Source: a virus | Taxonomy: Duplodnaviria > Heunggongvirae > Uroviricota > Caudoviricetes | IMG/VR virus record: IMGVR_UViG_3300043410_001642 | Location: 41,120 to 105,119 of that record | DNA: 64,000 nt | Strand: one strand, 5' to 3' | Part shown: piece after piece, positions 3,709 through 63,291 of the stretch | How the letters are laid out: each line of letters opens with the position of its first letter | Numbering within the stretch: the stretch's first letter is position 1 | Notes under the pieces: generated by a model | The model's database searches: none | What the model was told of the DNA's origin: nothing | What the model saw: only the letters and a program-made list of their open reading frames with translations | Position numbers and translations under genes: made by a program

Positions 3709-3972
3709 ATGAGCACAATCATTTTGGTAGTCGTTATTTTAGCAGTTGCTGGATTCGTTGGATACACTTTGACTAAAAAGGGTGTAATTAAAGACGAAAA
3801 CAACAACAACATTCCTGATGTAATTGAAGAAAAAATCAATGAAGTTGAGAAAGCTGTTGAAGTAGTTAAAACTACCGCAAAAAGAGCTAAAAAAGTAGCT
3901 AAAGAAGTAACTGAAGTTGCTGAAGTAGTAGCTAAACCTAAAAGAGGTAGAAAACCTGCTTCTCAAAAGTAA
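3709..3972 (+). CDS. membrane-anchored Lys-rich hypothetical protein
   Basis: N-terminal hydrophobic helix then K/E/V-rich tail. Confidence 0.4.
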   Translation: MSTIILVVVILAVAGFVGYTLTKKGVIKDENNNNIPDVIEEKINEVEKAVEVVKTTAKRAKKVAKEVTEVAEVVAKPKRGRKPASQK

Positions 3973-3991
3973 TAAGAAACATTAGAAGTTT

Positions 3992-4741
3992 ATGATTATC
4001 ACTCCTATATTGGAAAAATATACGGATACAAAATCCCTATATAATGAGTTCATTTCAAATGGGCCATTTCCTAATATAGAAATTCCTAATTTTCTTAACG
4101 ATGAATTGGTAATTAACATGAAAAATGAAATTACCGATTCCTATCGTAAACACAACCATCTTCTTAAGAATTTTACTAGAAATGGTTCTCACATGGTGGA
4201 GTTGTGTGAAGCAGGAGACATTTGTCCACTTGCTCACCAACTTATCGGTGATTTACATTCCAAATACTTTTTGGATTTCTTAGAAAAGGTAACGGGTATT
4301 GATGGATTAATTCCTGACCCCTGGTTAGTTGGAGCATCTTATATGAGATGTTATAGAGGAGATTCTCTTCAAGTTCACACTGATTTCAATTGGAACGAAA
4401 AATTAAAATTACATAGAGCACTAACATTAGTTATTTATCTGAATCCTATATGGGATGAAAGATGGAATGGTGATATACAATTGTGGGATAAAGATAGAAC
4501 ACGATGTGTTAAAAAATATTATCCTATGAGTGGTAATATGGTATTATGGGAATATAATAAACAGGCATTCCATGGCCACCCAAAACCATTAAATTGCCCA
4601 GAACATATTACGAGAGATGGTATTAGATTATTTTATTATACATCTGATGCTGAACATAAAAAAGATGACCCTCCACATCGTTCTCTATATTGGTATGATG
4701 AAAAAACTAAAGAATCCTTTGATAAAAGAGAAGAGTTCTAA
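3992..4741 (+). CDS. 2OG-Fe(II) oxygenase superfamily protein
   Basis: HxD...H arrangement (VHTDFN ... FHGHPKP) typical of prolyl-hydroxylase-like dioxygenases. Confidence 0.45.
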   Translation: MIITPILEKYTDTKSLYNEFISNGPFPNIEIPNFLNDELVINMKNEITDSYRKHNHLLKNFTRNGSHMVELCEAGDICPLAHQLIGDLHSKYFLDFLEKVTGIDGLIPDPWLVGASYMRCYRGDSLQVHTDFNWNEKLKLHRALTLVIYLNPIWDERWNGDIQLWDKDRTRCVKKYYPMSGNMVLWEYNKQAFHGHPKPLNCPEHITRDGIRLFYYTSDAEHKKDDPPHRSLYWYDEKTKESFDKREEF

Positions 4742-40566: not shown

Positions 40567-41777
40567 AAAATTTAGTTTTTTATAGATACTTTTCTAATCA
40601 TAAAAGAGAAGTTGAGTTTGAAGATTTTAATATAGATTCGGAATACTTTGCTGAAAGGGAATTATTCTCATTAAGAAAGAATTATTTTTTCACAACACTA
40701 AGTGATTACAATATTGTTACAAACGAATCTGATGTAAATGGATTAAATGATTTCACTCTATTGATTGGGTTTGACCCTTCATTCAAAGAAATGTTTGAAT
40801 TGATTGAGAGAGAAGATTTTAATAACATAATAGACCAGAATATATCAAAGATAAAAAAGATTATATTTTGGGAAATGGATACAGGATGGACAAACTATTC
40901 TTACAATGAATATCAATCTTTATCAGTTCCATTTAAACAATGGTTCAGTGATAAGAACATAGAGATTGAAATATTCACAAATGCTATGTCATTTAAGTAT
41001 GATGAAGAAGTTAAGTATTGGCCTTCACATAACTCAATGGTAATAGAAAGATTAGTTAGAGAATTGGAAAAGGCTAACTATTATGATATGGAGTTTGATA
41101 GAACTAAATACTTCTATGCAACTTCCAATTCATTGAATGTAGATAGATTACACTTCTACAAATATATGCATGATAATAAGATTTGGGAAAAGAATAACAT
41201 TGCTTTATTCTCTACATTTAGAAATAGTGAGCATGATGGAGGATTCCCTTACTCATATGTTAGAGAGATAAGAGGTAATTGTGGATTGGATGATATTGGA
41301 GATGATTACATATTCTATCCAAAACCATTCAAAGATGAAAACTTTCAAACTATGAATTATTCGGTATTATCAAATATTCAGAAGTTAAGAGAATGTTATT
41401 TTGAAATGGTGTTTGAAACGATATACGAAGCAAATGAAAATATGATAATCCAAACATCGGAAAAGACATGGAAACCTTTGGCTCAAAAGATACCATTTAT
41501 TACATTCTCATATGGTGATGTATTGAAAGAGTTTAAGAAATTAGGATTTAAAACATTTGATTTCATATTTGATGAGAGTTATGACAATGAAAGAAATACT
41601 CATAAAAGATTGTATAAAGTATTAGAGCAAATCGGAAAGGTTTGTAATATGAGTTTAGATGAGTTAAAGGAATATGAAAGTGAAATAAAAGCGGTAACGG
41701 ATTACAATTTTAATAACTTAAAAGAGGTCTTTTCTCTATGGAGAAATAGACTAAGAGATGCAGTTTATTATGAGTAA
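40563..41777 (+). CDS. glycosyltransferase, GT10 (alpha-1,3-fucosyltransferase)-like
   Basis: FETIYEANENMIIQTSEKTWKPLAQKIPFITFSYG resembles FucT FENS...ITEKLWK...VPVV motif; paralog of 36021-37166. Confidence 0.5.
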   Translation: MKNLVFYRYFSNHKREVEFEDFNIDSEYFAERELFSLRKNYFFTTLSDYNIVTNESDVNGLNDFTLLIGFDPSFKEMFELIEREDFNNIIDQNISKIKKIIFWEMDTGWTNYSYNEYQSLSVPFKQWFSDKNIEIEIFTNAMSFKYDEEVKYWPSHNSMVIERLVRELEKANYYDMEFDRTKYFYATSNSLNVDRLHFYKYMHDNKIWEKNNIALFSTFRNSEHDGGFPYSYVREIRGNCGLDDIGDDYIFYPKPFKDENFQTMNYSVLSNIQKLRECYFEMVFETIYEANENMIIQTSEKTWKPLAQKIPFITFSYGDVLKEFKKLGFKTFDFIFDESYDNERNTHKRLYKVLEQIGKVCNMSLDELKEYESEIKAVTDYNFNNLKEVFSLWRNRLRDAVYYE

Positions 41778-50303: not shown

Positions 50304-51164
50304 ATGGAGTTAATCACTGAATTAAAGAATATTGAAAATCTATCTGAAGAGATTAGTTTAATAGAAAGTGCTATTATGGCACAATTAATGGTAGAAGGGG
50401 TAGATGATCCTGGTATCTTAAAATGTATCTTTATGGCAGGTGGTCCTGGTAGCGGTAAATCATTCGTTGCACAGGAGTTATTCGGTATAGATAAACAATT
50501 AAAATCATCATTTGGTGCAGCAGGATTAAAGGTAGTAAACTCTGACCCTGCATTTGAGAACCAATTAAAGAAGAATGGTATAGACCCAAAGGATTTAGGA
50601 AGAATTGAAAAGGAAGACCCTAAATTATGGGATTTCATTACTAAATCAAAAGGTGGCCCTAGAGATATAGCTAAACAACAAATGGTTATGTTGAAAGGAT
50701 TTTATGAAGCTGGTAGATTGGGTATGATTATTGATGGAACTGGTGATGATTTCGATAAAATTCAGAGACAAAAGAAAGAAGCAGAAACATTGGGATATGA
50801 TACATATATGGTATTCGTTAATACATCTTTGGAAGTTGCTTTAATTAGAAATGCTGAAAGAGATAGAACTCTACCAGAAGATTTAGTAACTGGGAGTTGG
50901 AAAGAATGTCAGGAGAATATGGGTAAATTCCAATCTCTATTTGGAGGTGGTAAATTTACAATTGTAGATAACACTGAATATAAAAAGGGTGATTATGTTT
51001 TCAAACATAAAAAAACCGGTAAGACAGTTTCTGCATCAATGCCATTACAACCTCAAGTTAGAAAAGCAATTCAACAATTTATAGCTAAACCATTGTATAA
51101 TGCAATTGGTAAAAAATGGATTGAAACTGCTAGAAAGTTAAAAAACGCAAACATAATTAAATAA
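50304..51164 (+). CDS. P-loop NTPase / nucleotide kinase-like protein
   Basis: Walker A FMAGGPGSGKSFVAQE; downstream MIIDGTGDD (Walker B-like). Confidence 0.5.
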   Translation: MELITELKNIENLSEEISLIESAIMAQLMVEGVDDPGILKCIFMAGGPGSGKSFVAQELFGIDKQLKSSFGAAGLKVVNSDPAFENQLKKNGIDPKDLGRIEKEDPKLWDFITKSKGGPRDIAKQQMVMLKGFYEAGRLGMIIDGTGDDFDKIQRQKKEAETLGYDTYMVFVNTSLEVALIRNAERDRTLPEDLVTGSWKECQENMGKFQSLFGGGKFTIVDNTEYKKGDYVFKHKKTGKTVSASMPLQPQVRKAIQQFIAKPLYNAIGKKWIETARKLKNANIIK

Positions 51165-53961: not shown

Positions 53962-55059
53962 ATGAAACGAATAATAACATCATTCTGCATCCTGACAATG
54001 TTGGGATGTAGTAAAGATGATATCATAACTCCAAACCCAATTGAGACAATTGTAGGATATAAAAATCAAACTACAAATTCAATCAGATTACAATCTAAAG
54101 TTTGGCAATGGTATAATGAGAATACATCTTTTTATGCTGATATAAATTTGGATGGTAAGGAAGAAGTTTTTATTGCAAATGAAAATTCAAAACCAATAGT
54201 AATGTGGAATGATAATACATCTACAACTATTTCAGATGGTCTTAATATCTTTCCTCGTTCAATTATAGGAAATGATTTTAATGGAGATGGTTATATTGAT
54301 TTCGTAGTAATGGTTCATAACAATGAGCAACTACAACCAAACCCAGGAGAAATACCAAACTTATATTTGAATGATAAGAAAGGTGGATTCATAGTAAGCA
54401 AGTTAAATCTAAAATCAGCATTTTGGCATTTAGGATCATCTGCGGATATTGATAAGGATGGTGATATAGATTTAGTAGTATGCACTGCCGGTTCAGTTAA
54501 TATAATGATTAACGACGGCAAAGGTGGATTTACATTAGATAATAGTAGAATACCTTCAACATATACAAACTCACATTATATAGGAGGAATGTTGGAGGAT
54601 ATCAACGGAGATGGTTATATAGATTTATTGGTATATGGAGCAGAGTTTAATTCATTACCTAATAACACCGGTTTCGGCAAAGATAATCCATCTAAAACAA
54701 GAATACTATGGGGTAATAGTTCATTCAGCTACACCGAAGCAAATTCTATGATATTGCCAAATGATTCAGATGGATTTGGATTGATAATAGATGCCGTTTG
54801 TGTTGATTTAAATGATGATGGGAAGAAAGAAATTATATTGGATAGAACCGGTGACCCATTAAACTTTACATTCTATAAAGGATATAAGATTCAAATATTA
54901 ACGGAAGGCAATGATGTAACTAATAACTTTATTTCAAATGCTAGTTCAAAGACTGATGATTGGATTGTTTGGTTGAAAGTTATGGATGTTAATGGTGATT
55001 ACAAAAAAGATGTATTGGAAGGTAATAAAAGAAGAGTAAAATATTTTTTACAAAAATAG
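53962..55059 (+). CDS. FG-GAP/VCBS-repeat lipoprotein (beta-propeller-like)
   Basis: Lipobox LTMLGCSKDD; six DxNxDGxxD-type repeats (DINLDGKEEVF, DFNGDGYIDFVV, DIDKDGDIDLVV, DINGDGYIDLLV, DLNDDGKKEIIL, DVNGDYKKDVL). Confidence 0.55.
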   Translation: MKRIITSFCILTMLGCSKDDIITPNPIETIVGYKNQTTNSIRLQSKVWQWYNENTSFYADINLDGKEEVFIANENSKPIVMWNDNTSTTISDGLNIFPRSIIGNDFNGDGYIDFVVMVHNNEQLQPNPGEIPNLYLNDKKGGFIVSKLNLKSAFWHLGSSADIDKDGDIDLVVCTAGSVNIMINDGKGGFTLDNSRIPSTYTNSHYIGGMLEDINGDGYIDLLVYGAEFNSLPNNTGFGKDNPSKTRILWGNSSFSYTEANSMILPNDSDGFGLIIDAVCVDLNDDGKKEIILDRTGDPLNFTFYKGYKIQILTEGNDVTNNFISNASSKTDDWIVWLKVMDVNGDYKKDVLEGNKRRVKYFLQK

Positions 55060-55133
55060 TTAATTTTTTATCGTTTTGTAAAATTACTTTATATATATCT
55101 ATATACAAATATATAATAGAAAAAAATAATTGA

Positions 55134-55180
55134 AAAATTATTAGGAAATGTGAAAATCATTTCGTATATTTGTAAAACAA
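55134..55180 (+). promoter_or_regulatory. promoter-like direct repeat copy 1 (TATATTTG -7 box) upstream of initiator tRNA
   Basis: ATTAGGAAATGTGAAAATCATTTCGTATATTTGTAAAACAA; matches Bacteroidetes TAnnTTTG -7 consensus. Confidence 0.5.
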
Positions 55181-55207
55181 TAAGGAAATAAGTTCTTTAA
55201 CATATAT

Positions 55208-55279
55208 CGCGGGGTAGAGCAGTGGTAGCTTGGTGGGCTCATAACCCATAGGTCGGTGGTTCGAATCCATCCTCCGCAA
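55208..55279 (+). tRNA. tRNA-fMet (CAT), initiator-like
   Basis: C1xA72 unpaired acceptor end, three consecutive G-C pairs in anticodon stem, loop CTCATAA, T-arm GGTGGTTCGAATCCATC. Confidence 0.8.
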
Positions 55280-55284
55280 CTAAA

Positions 55285-55340
55285 AAAATATTACAAATAA
55301 TTAGGAAATGTGAAAATCATTTCGTATATTTGTAAAACAA
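55285..55340 (+). promoter_or_regulatory. promoter-like direct repeat copy 2
   Basis: AAATATTACAAATAATTAGGAAATGTGAAAATCATTTCGTATATTTGTAAAACAA. Confidence 0.5.
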
Positions 55341-55445
55341 AATGAGATAGTGGTTGAAGCCAACATCTAATAAAACCGAATGTGTGACTACTTCCTCCAT
55401 ATGCAGGGGGTTAAATAAAGCCGGATATCACTAAAACATTTTGTA

Positions 55446-55498
55446 AAAAATATTACAAATAATTAGGAAATGTGAAAATGTTTTCGTATATTTGTAAA
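55446..55498 (+). promoter_or_regulatory. promoter-like direct repeat copy 3
   Basis: Same repeat with 3 substitutions (…AAAATGTTTTCGTATATTTGTAAAG). Confidence 0.5.
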
Positions 55499-55608
55499 GT
55501 TGACCAGAAGTAGGAAGGCAATATAGTCTAAACAATGCTACTCTCCCACTATTGGAGAGATGAGTATAAAAAGGATATCCGAAAATGTTCAACAAAAAAA
55601 AGATAAAA

Positions 55609-55662
55609 AATATTTAAAGAAATATTTGGAAATGTGAAAATCATTTCGTATCTTTACGAAGT
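55609..55662 (+). promoter_or_regulatory. promoter-like direct repeat copy 4 (diverged -7 region)
   Basis: AAATATTTGGAAATGTGAAAATCATTTCGTATCTTTACGAAG directly upstream of ORF-free 1.5 kb segment. Confidence 0.4.
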
Positions 55663-55664
55663 AA

Positions 55665-57184
55665 TTATGAAACTCATAGGTGATGAAAGATACTCGGTAT
55701 TCATAATAACAAAAAAGTTCTTTAAAAGATTGAAATTATATTCTATATAGTAACCTTGTGTTACATAATAGAGTGGCCGCATATGGTCGTTAAATAAACT
55801 ACGAAAGTAGGATAAAGTGGAATGGTTTGGTTTAATCATTCTGCGGCTTTTCACCCGTAAGGGAGTTGAGCTCAAGTATGCAAGTGAGATATCGCTTTGG
55901 CTTTGTAGGTGGGGGTAACACTATCATCGAAGAGTTGGAGTGACTGGGCAAATGTAGATTGTTCAGTTGAGTTGGGAACAACAATAAGAATAACTCATAG
56001 AATTTATGCAAGAAGTTGAAACTTAATCCCTTTCAATCATTGCGTGATTCAATACAAAAGTGGTCTTAACATCAAATTGGGGAAACCCTTTAAGATAAGA
56101 CTGTGTACAGGTGGTGCTGTTACTATCCTTTTATAGAGTTTACCAAAACCTATAAATGAAGATGACTTGAAGTATGATGATAGGGATATCATATCGGGTA
56201 GTAAAGTATTCCGTTGTTCAAAAGATAGCGGAGCTTATGGCAAACCACTACCTGAAACCATCTACAAAACCAAACTCATTTGCATTTGGATTGCAAAATC
56301 ATAAAATCAAGTAAGAAAAAGAGTTTGCCAGTTGTATCCGAAAGGTGTCTACATAGTAATGAGATGTTCATTGCCACAAACCTCCTCAAGGGGAATGTGA
56401 TTCATCTGAAAGGTTTCTAACACCGCAAGTGTGAATTAGCTCGGCAGAGTTGAAGAAAATAAGTATGGTGAGAGTAGGATATAACTCTAAGATTGGTTGG
56501 CTATACCGACCGACATTGAATTGGTACTTCTCAAAAGGAAGTGGAAACGAAAGGAACTAATAATCTTTCTAAAGCTGGTTCACAATATGGAGTATTCTCA
56601 TCCTTATTTTATTATCTAAATGGTTAAAGTTGGTTCGATTCCAATATAGATAACTTCGTAGTGGTTTAACGGCAGAAAAATAGATGTACCTTCTAGAGAC
56701 TGAAAGTTCCACTTAAATAAAATCGACAAATATATGATGGTATGGTTTTCCGTAGGGGATTTTTACCTTAAACAATCTCAACCAATGCGAATTAGTGTTG
56801 ATGGTAACAACGGCTGTAGCTAGGCCATTTGAAAGAACCACCCTACAAAATCTTTCTTTTTAGCTAAAGTGAAAGTAGTTTAATGAGGCTTATATTAACC
56901 GGTGCATGACACGACGTGGCGTATTTTGAAATTAAATTACTTTTTTTATTATTAAAAAAAATATTGTTATACTTATTATAGAAAACTAAAGATGAAAACT
57001 TTAACATTACATACAATCAATCAACTGCCAACACAAAGATGTGAATGGACGGGGATTCGTATGTTTAGTGTGATAGCGAATCCGGCAACCTTGAATTTTG
57101 GCAAGGTGGATTATATTAGCACGAAGATGTTAGAGGATACTGATGTAGGATAAAATGTAACAATTTTAGAACAATATTGAAAAA
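55665..57184 (+). ncRNA. candidate large non-coding RNA (ORF-free, promoter-to-terminator segment)
   Basis: No + strand ORF of 60 aa or more over about 1.5 kb in an otherwise coding-dense region; promoter repeat at 5' end, terminator at 57185-57215; internal hairpins and a tRNA T-arm-like GGTTCGATTCC at 56632. Confidence 0.4.
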
Positions 57185-57215
57185 CCTCTAACTCACAAAG
57201 TTAGGGGTTTTTTAG
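57185..57215 (+). terminator. rho-independent terminator
   Basis: CCTCTAACT-CACAA-AGTTAGGGG hairpin followed by TTTTTT. Confidence 0.6.
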
Positions 57216-57224
57216 TTTTTATAT

Positions 57225-57296
57225 GTTGGTGTAGCTCAATGGTAGAGCAACGGACTGTTAATCCGTAGGTTGTAGGTTCGAATCCTTCCACCAACG
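57225..57296 (+). tRNA. tRNA-Asn (GTT)
   Basis: Perfect 7-bp acceptor GTTGGTG/CACCAAC, anticodon loop CTGTTAA, T-loop TTCGAAT (one T-stem mismatch). Confidence 0.8.
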
Positions 57297-57328
57297 CAAG
57301 AAAGGTTCTTTGACATTATGGGAAAAGC

Positions 57329-57402
57329 AGGAGATTAGCTCAGTCGGTTAGAGCATCGCCCTTACATGGCGAGGGTCATAGGTTCGAATCCTATATCTCC
57401 TA
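57329..57402 (+). tRNA. tRNA-Val (TAC)
   Basis: Acceptor AGGAGAT/ATCTCCT, D-arm TAGCTCAGTCGGTTAGAGC, anticodon loop CTTACAT, T-arm ATAGGTTCGAATCCTAT. Confidence 0.85.
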
Positions 57403-58847: not shown

Positions 58848-58918
58848 CAACCGGTGAAGGATACTGGATGTATCGCCTGGCATTAGAGCTGGGAAAGTGG
58901 TTCGATTCCACATTTTAT

Positions 58919-58986
58919 TGCGGGGAGAGAGGTTTCCCACCGGTCTCATAAGCCGAGTGTTCTAGGTTCGATTCCTAGCCCCGCAA
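58919..58986 (+). tRNA. tRNA (CAT), short D-arm; Met or Ile2(lysidine)
   Basis: Perfect acceptor TGCGGGG/CCCCGCA, loop CTCATAA, T-arm CTAGGTTCGATTCCTAG; only 68 nt. Confidence 0.55.
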
Positions 58987-63139: not shown

Positions 63140-63213
63140 GGGCTTGTAGCTCATTCGGTTAGAGCAACGCACTCATAATGCGGAGGTAATAGGTTCGATT
63201 CCTATCTGGCCCA
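63140..63213 (+). tRNA. tRNA (CAT), elongator Met or Ile2
   Basis: D-arm TAGCTCATTCGGTTAGAGC, loop CTCATAA, T-arm ATAGGTTCGATTCCTAT; acceptor GGGCTTG/CTGGCCC with one mismatch. Confidence 0.7.
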
Positions 63214-63291
63214 CAAACTAAGTGGTTAAAATAGTGGGCATCCGATGGAGTGCCGAAAAGAGAATAGGTGTTTTCTATCCATCATTTTTAA

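Follow-up and report, generated by a model that had tools for sequence, protein, structure and literature searches.

A 64,000-nucleotide (nt) stretch of Caudoviricetes DNA (positions 41,120 to 105,119 of IMG/VR record IMGVR_UViG_3300043410_001642; hereafter the window) contains a 1.5 kb segment at 55665-57215 that, as the initial annotation of the letters alone had stated, adjoins a transfer RNA (tRNA) island, the tRNA array beginning at 57225. The best overall explanation of this segment, to which we assign a probability of about 0.9, is a phage transcription unit that yields mainly a GOLLD RNA closely related to env-38. Because a match to the Rfam family, homology and covariation in the 5' domain and an alignment with env-38 all point the same way, the window almost certainly carries a full-length GOLLD of the env-38 subclade. 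GOLLD RNAs are among the largest non-coding RNAs (ncRNAs) of bacteria and phages and form an RNA-only cage bigger than the ribosome. The locus is a further member of this family and not a new class, and its position next to a phage tRNA island, downstream of a tRNA-Met gene, is the textbook context of GOLLD, described previously (PMC12286853, PMC12990946). The segment itself is composite, made of modules rather than of a single RNA: in order, a putative promoter of Bacteroidetes type, a boxA-like leader, GOLLD, a tRNA-like minihelix, a non-coding block (about 208 nt long), a hairpin ending in a T-run, a 53-amino-acid (aa) open reading frame (ORF) and a terminator.

The window was compared with all 4227 Rfam families (Rfam 15) using Infernal, and GOLLD (RF02032) was the one non-tRNA match in it, at 56194-56604 on the + strand. 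The match runs through the model from end to end (1-416 of 416) with 307.5 bits and an E value of 4e-87. The initial annotation had proposed a large ornate ncRNA, with GOLLD named first, and had indicated this comparison as the way to check it; the outcome agrees with that proposal at twice the gathering score (150 bits), the full-length match being to a model that spans the conserved 3' domain only. ROOL, HEARO, group I and II introns, RNase P, transfer-messenger RNA (tmRNA) and 6S RNA gave no match within 55000-57400 at E values up to 10, and none in the whole window at the Rfam gathering threshold. ROOL is likewise a large ornate RNA that lies next to phage tRNA islands and assembles into a cage of RNA alone (PMC12286853). 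It is unrelated to GOLLD in sequence and fold, and it has no match in the window at E up to 10. The region stands beyond chance because of the GOLLD match and because dozens of viral and metagenomic contigs preserve it in full. The full GOLLD RNA occupies 55775-56604 (830 nt) and consists of the following parts.

55775-56193, + strand: GOLLD 5' domain (nhmmer homology, covarying helices 1-21 of alignment A1, env-38 alignment)
56194-56604, + strand: GOLLD 3' domain (Rfam RF02032; covariation in helices 22-37 of A1)
about 56256-56329, + strand: A-rich unstructured linker within the 3' domain (unpaired model positions 63-136; env-38 linker)

Distant GOLLD loci were gathered from IMG/VR with a degenerate pattern derived from the Rfam model, and LR745206.1, from a 634-kb uncultured phage, was added from GenBank, its GOLLD being confirmed at 287 bits. 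According to nhmmer, both domains are homologous to 18-19 distant IMG/VR and GenBank loci and to more than 25 close metagenome loci. The matches to the 5' domain begin at 55775 in distant and close loci alike. Homology to the distant loci starts sharply at that point (GGCCGC...) and ends at 56604, and the 610 nt that follow have no nhmmer counterpart in them. GOLLDs of other phage lineages (L024-L042 of IMG/VR, LR745206.1, and the Streptococcus agalactiae and Mycolicibacterium GOLLDs of the literature) share with the window the 3' domain, a homologous 5' domain, the boxA-like leader motif and an upstream initiator-like tRNA-Met. Alignment A1 comprises 15 sequences of the full 830-nt RNA with a mean column identity of 71%, for which RNAalifold predicts 210 pairs. 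In total, 96.8% of its cells are paired, a percentage inflated by the structure having been derived from the same alignment. Both sides change in 134 of the 210 pairs, as opposed to 27-46 in controls with the 3' partners shifted by 1-3 columns, and the observed values were reached in none of 500 shuffles. The excess of compensatory pairs is large even though the structure came from the same alignment.

BLAST against GenBank phages found nothing close: LR745206.1 matched the 5' domain at 70%, and the one other hit was to tRNA-Asn. The locus is missing from GenBank phages yet abundant in metagenomes. Relatives were recovered with the probe TTCGTAGTGGTT, a short motif after the T-loop that is common to the window and LR745206.1, and then with two further probes, which together yielded about 35 IMG/VR and metagenome loci where the whole region is conserved, tail included. 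This motif proved the key to the close relatives, although a MAFFT alignment of the window tail with the LR745206.1 locus was uninformative. Several relatives lie on contigs of 103-288 kb with the same downstream tRNA order as the window, and the relatives are one large-phage lineage. A separate scan with the pattern GTATT..TTCAAAAGA..AGC was discarded, its 22 viral loci all being chance matches and none of them having an Rfam match.

The sequence of env-38 GOLLD was taken from Supplementary Table 4 of PMC12286853. In a pairwise alignment, 55775-56604 is about 83% identical to env-38 and has the same ends, the identity being approximate since 17 nt of the env-38 sequence were missing from the comparison. 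The two RNAs are of similar length (830 nt here, 833 nt in env-38), both ends of the window's RNA coincide with those of the construct used for cryo-electron microscopy, and the two share the two-domain architecture, the linker, an extended P11a hairpin with a GAAA loop (56069-56094 here) and a site downstream of a tRNA-Met in a phage-like tRNA context. They differ in source: env-38 stems from a marine GOS scaffold, and the window belongs to a jumbo-phage-like lineage of freshwater or other metagenomes. The loops GGGGAAACCC, CCGCAAG and CUCGGCAG are the same or nearly the same in env-38. The loops of the inter-subunit contacts are kept, namely GAAA (P11a) and CCGCAAG and CGGCA (P21a/b), which make kissing contacts in the solved structure; these bridge loops were placed by their position in the Rfam structure, not by atomic coordinates. 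L21a has a core of GC or CG, and the LR745206.1 locus shows the CG variant.

Cryo-electron microscopy of env-38 GOLLD (PDB 9MEE) revealed a closed 14-subunit cage of D7 symmetry, self-assembled without protein (PMC12286853). More generally, separate 5' and 3' domains build the RNA-only cage, with 14 subunits in env-38 and 12 in the streptococcal member (PMC12286853, PMC12990946). Given the sequence identity to env-38, it is quite probable that the RNA of the window also assembles into a protein-free 14-subunit D7 cage, in which the 5' domain would form the cap and the 3' domain the ring. The linker of env-38 is disordered and faces the cage interior (PMC12286853), and the A-rich linker of the window would be directed inwards likewise. 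Some GOLLDs of the literature hold a tRNA in the linker; the GOLLD of the window has none, ARAGORN having found no tRNA inside its 3' domain or linker. It has been suggested that, in lytic growth, the cage encloses or sequesters cargo such as tRNAs or ribosomes (PMC12286853, PMC12990946). Expression that increases on phage lysis counts as a defining trait of the family as well. The locus is very near a structurally solved GOLLD, and with a lineage present in dozens of metagenomic contigs it offers a good comparative set.

It had initially been supposed that the whole 1.5 kb was one RNA, perhaps of a new class. Neither supposition held, as GOLLD fills only 830 of the 1550 nt, the rest being separate modules, and those 830 nt are explained by a known family. 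The description of the coding content was accurate: the ORF list has no + strand ORF above 60 aa within 55665-57215, the longest being of 53 aa (56992-57153), and the sole ORF of at least 60 aa is one of 73 aa on the minus strand (55654-55875). The latter was rejected as a real gene; it runs across the leader and into the beginning of the GOLLD 5' domain. The lack of a long ORF, and the presence of a promoter-like repeat and a terminator at either end, would suit a single giant ncRNA of a new class or decayed coding DNA, readings that we find scarcely credible. The Rfam match (E 4e-87), the limits of nhmmer homology and the covariation in A1 led us to reject a single 1.5-kb ncRNA, as did the independent gain and loss of the remaining modules among relatives, the last of which is a conserved ORF. 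Indels of 1-2 nt and compensatory pair changes are unlike decaying coding sequence, and decayed coding DNA was rejected on these grounds.

The part upstream of GOLLD contains four features.

55605-55672, + strand: fourth 68-nt promoter-type repeat (TTTG at 55625-55628 and TATCTTTA at 55649-55656, 20 nt apart)
55665-55706, + strand: leader hairpin in a boxB-like position just upstream of the boxA-like motif (minimum free energy fold of 55665-55774)
55717-55725, + strand: boxA-like motif GTTCTTTAA (context AGTTCTTTAAAAG; conserved GTTCTTTRA)
55740-55774, + strand: variable leader hairpin abutting the GOLLD 5' end (fold)

The statement that the segment starts right after a promoter-type repeat proved correct. 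The 68-nt repeat (family D1) is present in four copies, at 55121, 55281, 55443 and 55605, with a spacing of 160-162 nt, and the last copy ends at 55672. Bacteroidetes promoters have the -33/-7 consensus TTTG / TAnnTTTG. The TTTG-N20-TATCTTTA of the repeat appears to fit this form, and the homologous distant GOLLD loci have TTTG-N20-TATCTTTG at the matching site upstream of GOLLD. A sigma-70 promoter scan is uninformative for promoters of the Bacteroidetes type. Transcription from such a promoter, with its -7 box at 55649-55656, would start near 55660-55665.

All 23 of the 23 distinct loci compared have the motif GTTCTTTRA in the 160 nt before GOLLD begins, at distances of 20-128 nt, and the background rate of the motif is 0.02 per 160 nt. 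Outside enterobacteria the broader boxA consensus is of the UGUUCUUUGA type. The boxA of the E. coli rrn operons is UGCUCUUUA (PMC2724277), with which AGUUCUUUA agrees at 7 of 9 positions, the reference being that of E. coli and possibly not that of the host. BoxA is known to shield non-coding CRISPR transcripts, including those of Bacteroidetes (PMC7665894). By analogy, the motif at 55717-55725 would recruit the host Nus antitermination complex and allow the 1.2-kb untranslated transcript to escape Rho; we consider antitermination of the GOLLD unit by boxA slightly better than an even bet. The GOLLD leader shares with the rrn and CRISPR cases a promoter-proximal, U-rich motif near UGCUCUUUA, a long untranslated transcript and a hairpin before the motif, and differs from them in that the motif, a putative NusB/NusE site, reads GUUCUUURA. 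In the open-access literature we found no prior description of boxA or antitermination in connection with GOLLD, and no usable consensus for such a boxA variant. The distant GOLLD loci likewise have a hairpin between promoter and motif, and the fold at 55665-55706 weakly suggests a boxB-like element. At the site of the second hairpin (55740-55774) the relatives have different hairpins or none.

The boxA-like motif is also found at 55192-55200, before tRNA-fMet, and at 57305-57313, between tRNA-Asn and tRNA-Val (GTTCTTTAA / GTTCTTTGA), and the relatives hold it at the matching tRNA-fMet and tRNA-Asn/tRNA-Val sites. Since the same motif stands before tRNA-fMet and in the tRNA array, its distribution suggests that the whole RNA-gene island may use one antitermination signal.

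Downstream of GOLLD lie three further elements.

56612-56653, + strand: tRNA-like minihelix (7-base-pair acceptor-like stem TTATCTA/TAGATAA and T-arm TTGG-TTCGATT-CCAA)
56654-56861, + strand: conserved non-coding block with a T-run at its end (conservation; no Rfam family)
56874-56949, + strand: long hairpin AGTAGTTTAAT / ATTAAATTACT (conserved interior, then TTTTTTT)

A tRNA T-loop motif had been noticed in the segment, and it is indeed present, as GGTTCGATTCC at 56632-56642, inside the minihelix. The T-loop pattern GTTCRAWTC is over-represented in the window (21 matches, 2.4 expected), and the copy in the minihelix lies outside the called tRNAs. Stem and T-arm, the latter canonical, are joined by an 11-nt D-loop-like remnant; there is no anticodon arm, and with acceptor-like stem and T-arm only, 56612-56653 is not called as a tRNA by ARAGORN or Rfam. 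All 11 pairs form in each of 10 distinct sequences, and 5 of the 7 acceptor pairs show compensatory changes, compared with 0-1 in slid controls. Three relatives have a cloverleaf-like element of 73 nt directly 3' of GOLLD (L045 4635-4707, L064 2368-2440 and L056 926-998), with an 8-nt anticodon loop, which ARAGORN reports as tRNA-??? with the 4-base anticodon gtga. This tRNA-like gene, from which the minihelix of the window appears to descend, could encode a tRNA that reads quadruplets or one that does not decode. Still other relatives have a different degenerate tRNA-like sequence in the same slot.

In the clade of the window, the tRNA-like element sits where other clades carry a terminator after GOLLD; loci of other lineages are without the 208-nt block, and in them a strong intrinsic terminator follows the last hairpin at a distance of about 10 nt. 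An acceptor stem with a T-arm is the minimal recognition unit of the enzymes that process tRNA ends. The minihelix might be cut by RNase P and/or RNase Z, which would set the 3' end of GOLLD in place of a terminator and free a second RNA (56654-56861, about 208 nt) with T-runs and the hairpin at 56874-56949 as its limits. On the sequence evidence we put such tRNA-like processing at a little below even odds. Together with the boxA step, it would amount to synthesis of GOLLD on the pattern of an rRNA operon. Punctuation by tRNAs is familiar from MALAT1-mascRNA in mammals, from tRNA spacers in rRNA operons and from mitochondrial tRNAs. As in those systems, an acceptor/T-arm module lies right 3' of a long structured ncRNA, and an RNase P cut would form the mature 3' end; the difference is that the module is here mostly reduced to a 42-nt minihelix, a candidate processing signal.

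The main rival to this processing step is that minihelix and block stay attached as a clade-specific 3' extension of GOLLD, so that each cage subunit would bear a covalently linked tRNA-like module and an extra domain, much as some GOLLDs hold tRNAs in their linker. In its favour, the block is found only directly after GOLLD and the tRNA-like element, in about 29 of the 29 clade loci that reach that far, and a minihelix without anticodon arm or CCA and with a 2-nt spacer may be a poor processing substrate. Embedded tRNAs shielded from maturation have moreover been proposed for the Mycolicibacterium GOLLD (PMC12990946, PMC12286853). Conversely, most other GOLLD lineages reach a terminator about 10-45 nt past the last hairpin, the env-38 cage assembles without any extension, and selection has kept precisely the acceptor stem and T-arm while the other parts of the tRNA were lost. 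An attached extension seems to us possible yet rather unlikely.

The block exists in 22 distinct versions with a mean column identity of 86%, and it is regarded as non-coding because its indels are of 1-2 nt only. Its predicted helices are 97% paired, with 8 compensatory pairs (1-4 in slid controls). It has no Rfam 15 match at E up to 10, and nhmmer did not find it in 19 more distant GOLLD loci. A scan of genome contigs for the block gave 5 chance matches only, and no prophage or host was identified in this way. In the hairpin that follows, both sides of the outer stem change among relatives (AGTAACT/GTTACT; CTAATCC/GGATTAG) and the T-run is kept; it is likely an intrinsic terminator or a 3' stabiliser of the RNA unit. 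The motif TTTTTAGCTAA (56857-56867) comes after the block in the window and after the hairpin element in several relatives. Because of this placement, and because the relative L077 is missing the hairpin, the hairpin module is suggested to have been inserted or duplicated at the block junction.

The end of the segment is occupied by a protein gene and a terminator.

56992-57153, + strand: 53-aa protein gene (MKTLTLHTINQLPTQRCEWTGIRMFSVIANPATLNFGKVDYISTKMLEDTDVG; ORF conservation)
57176-57216, + strand: intrinsic terminator (18 pairs and a T-run), with tRNA-Asn next at 57225

The clean terminator reported at the end of the segment was found as an 18-pair hairpin with a T-run, and the folding z-score of 56936-57220 is -4.8. 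The 53-aa ORF is intact, from ATG to stop, in 19 distinct homologues, with indels in frame only and 3-7 stops in the other two frames. Codon pairs with a single-base difference comprise 842 synonymous and 845 non-synonymous changes, where chance would make about one quarter synonymous. Neither Pfam nor PHROG has a match for the protein. The final 225 nt constitute a separate small protein gene with its own terminator. Two hairpins cited initially as signs of a structured RNA, GGATTCG/CGAATCC (about 57054-57086) and CCTTG..CAAGG (57088-57107), are both present, but they lose their value as ncRNA evidence since both sit inside this conserved ORF; GGATTCG/CGAATCC is not preserved as a pair in distant homologues, although the peptide is. 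A conserved small ORF had been named as evidence that would count against an ncRNA; such an ORF is found in the last 225 nt, and not in the RNA part.

A further alternative is that the block is a cis-acting leader, similar to an attenuator or riboswitch, that governs how often transcription continues into the small ORF. A stem and T-run close the block, and the small ORF follows it in most relatives (in L077 after about 60 nt). Alternative structures can also be drawn: GUAGUGG (56658) or GUAGGGG (56753) could pair with CCACCCUAC at 56840, and GAAAG with UUUUC or the downstream CUUUC. These alternative pairings are however invariant, and covariation supports neither. Between block and ORF there is usually also an AT-rich spacer, along with another hairpin that has a T-run. 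Two lineages (L051/L063/L065/L066 and L054/L070) have unrelated genes after the block, whereas GOLLD always comes before it, and because of these other genes the block is not tied to the small ORF. A cis-regulatory role is improbable, and less likely than an attached extension.

Several points weigh against our overall interpretation of the unit. The promoter, the transcript ends and the processing are all inferred from sequence. The boxA of E. coli may not be that of the host. The leader hairpins are without significant folding energy or z-score. Across the window the count of GTTCTTTRA is not significant (5 found, 2.4 expected), and the case for boxA rests for this reason on position and cross-locus conservation. 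The minihelix has no encoded CCA and has a 2-nt spacer between T-stem and acceptor strand. The two long-range helices of the block are invariant and hence uninformative on covariation, and in folding energy the block has no advantage over shuffled sequence (56605-56935, z-score +2.3). Finally, the 83% figure is approximate, 17 nt of env-38 being absent from the comparison.

What is possibly new at this locus is confined to the flanks of GOLLD, that is, the boxA-like leader, the tRNA-like punctuation and the block, none of which we found described in the open-access literature. If confirmed, these features would narrow hypotheses on the biogenesis and partners of GOLLD and leave the nature of GOLLD itself unchanged. 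The boxA-like motif, the tRNA-like element, the 208-nt RNA and the synteny with an initiator tRNA are testable handles on how GOLLD is produced and what accompanies it. A more ambitious and rather doubtful idea is that GOLLD is synthesised in the manner of an rRNA operon, from a long boxA-led precursor that the minihelix punctuates, together with a previously undescribed RNA of about 208 nt, perhaps a partner or cargo of the cage, as part of a multi-RNA module aimed at host translation. Were this true, the strict synteny with the upstream initiator tRNA-fMet and with a small RNA at 55341-55442 would mark the module as one directed against host translation.

The tRNA-Met at 55208-55280 (+ strand) resembles an initiator in its C1 x A72 (or U72) mismatch, its start CGCGGGG and the GGG/CCC (GG/CC in relatives) beside the anticodon loop. 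An initiator-type tRNA-Met lies upstream of GOLLD in most GOLLD loci examined, and on the same strand in L023, L025, L028, L029, L032, L035-L038, L040, L045, L048, L058, L064, L075 and L078. No paper linking GOLLD to an initiator tRNA was found in the open-access literature. A separate tRNA-Met of elongator type is located at 63140-63214 of the window. About 100 nt that lie between the second and third repeats (55341-55442, + strand) are conserved in at least 10 distinct relatives, always between tRNA-fMet and GOLLD. Their core (GUUGAAGCCAACAUCUAAUAAAACCGAAUG...AAAGCCGG) is invariant and is accompanied by a closing stem and by a hairpin that varies; they have no Rfam match and are a candidate small RNA with its own promoter. 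Another ORF-free unit of about 100 nt follows the third promoter repeat (55500-55604, + strand), with a homologue only in L078.

ARAGORN called 23 tRNAs in the window, 22 of them from 57225 on and the tRNA-Met upstream at 55208. GOLLD is separated by 495 nt from this tRNA-Met and by 620 nt from the start of the array. One more tRNA, missed by ARAGORN, was detected by Rfam alone at 58919-58986 (34 bits; CAT anticodon, reduced D-arm), and a further T-loop motif occurs at 58900, in an unannotated tRNA-like stretch upstream of 58919 (region 58851-58986). ARAGORN found no tmRNA in the 64-kb window; two relatives encode one upstream of the tRNA-fMet/GOLLD module (L045 2364-2738 and L048 9410-9780; tag ...FADAMAFVGADLAVAA). 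In the LR745206.1 locus (L023, 417436-423672), GOLLD is flanked by unusually long, insert-bearing tRNA-like genes at 2401-2492 and 3846-4124; the upstream one is a weak match to the tmRNA model and the downstream one is called tRNA-Pro(agg), 90 nt.

Among the neighbouring protein genes, the one at 50304-51161 (+ strand) lies upstream of the RNA island at a distance of about 4 kb. Its 286-aa product matches AAA_33 / Zeta-toxin-type P-loop kinases and a polynucleotide-kinase PHROG, and may be an enzyme of RNA repair or one related to tRNA. The gene at 53962-55059 (+ strand), the final one for a protein ahead of the island, specifies an FG-GAP repeat protein of 365 aa whose N-terminus is lipoprotein-like (MKRIITSFCILTMLGC).

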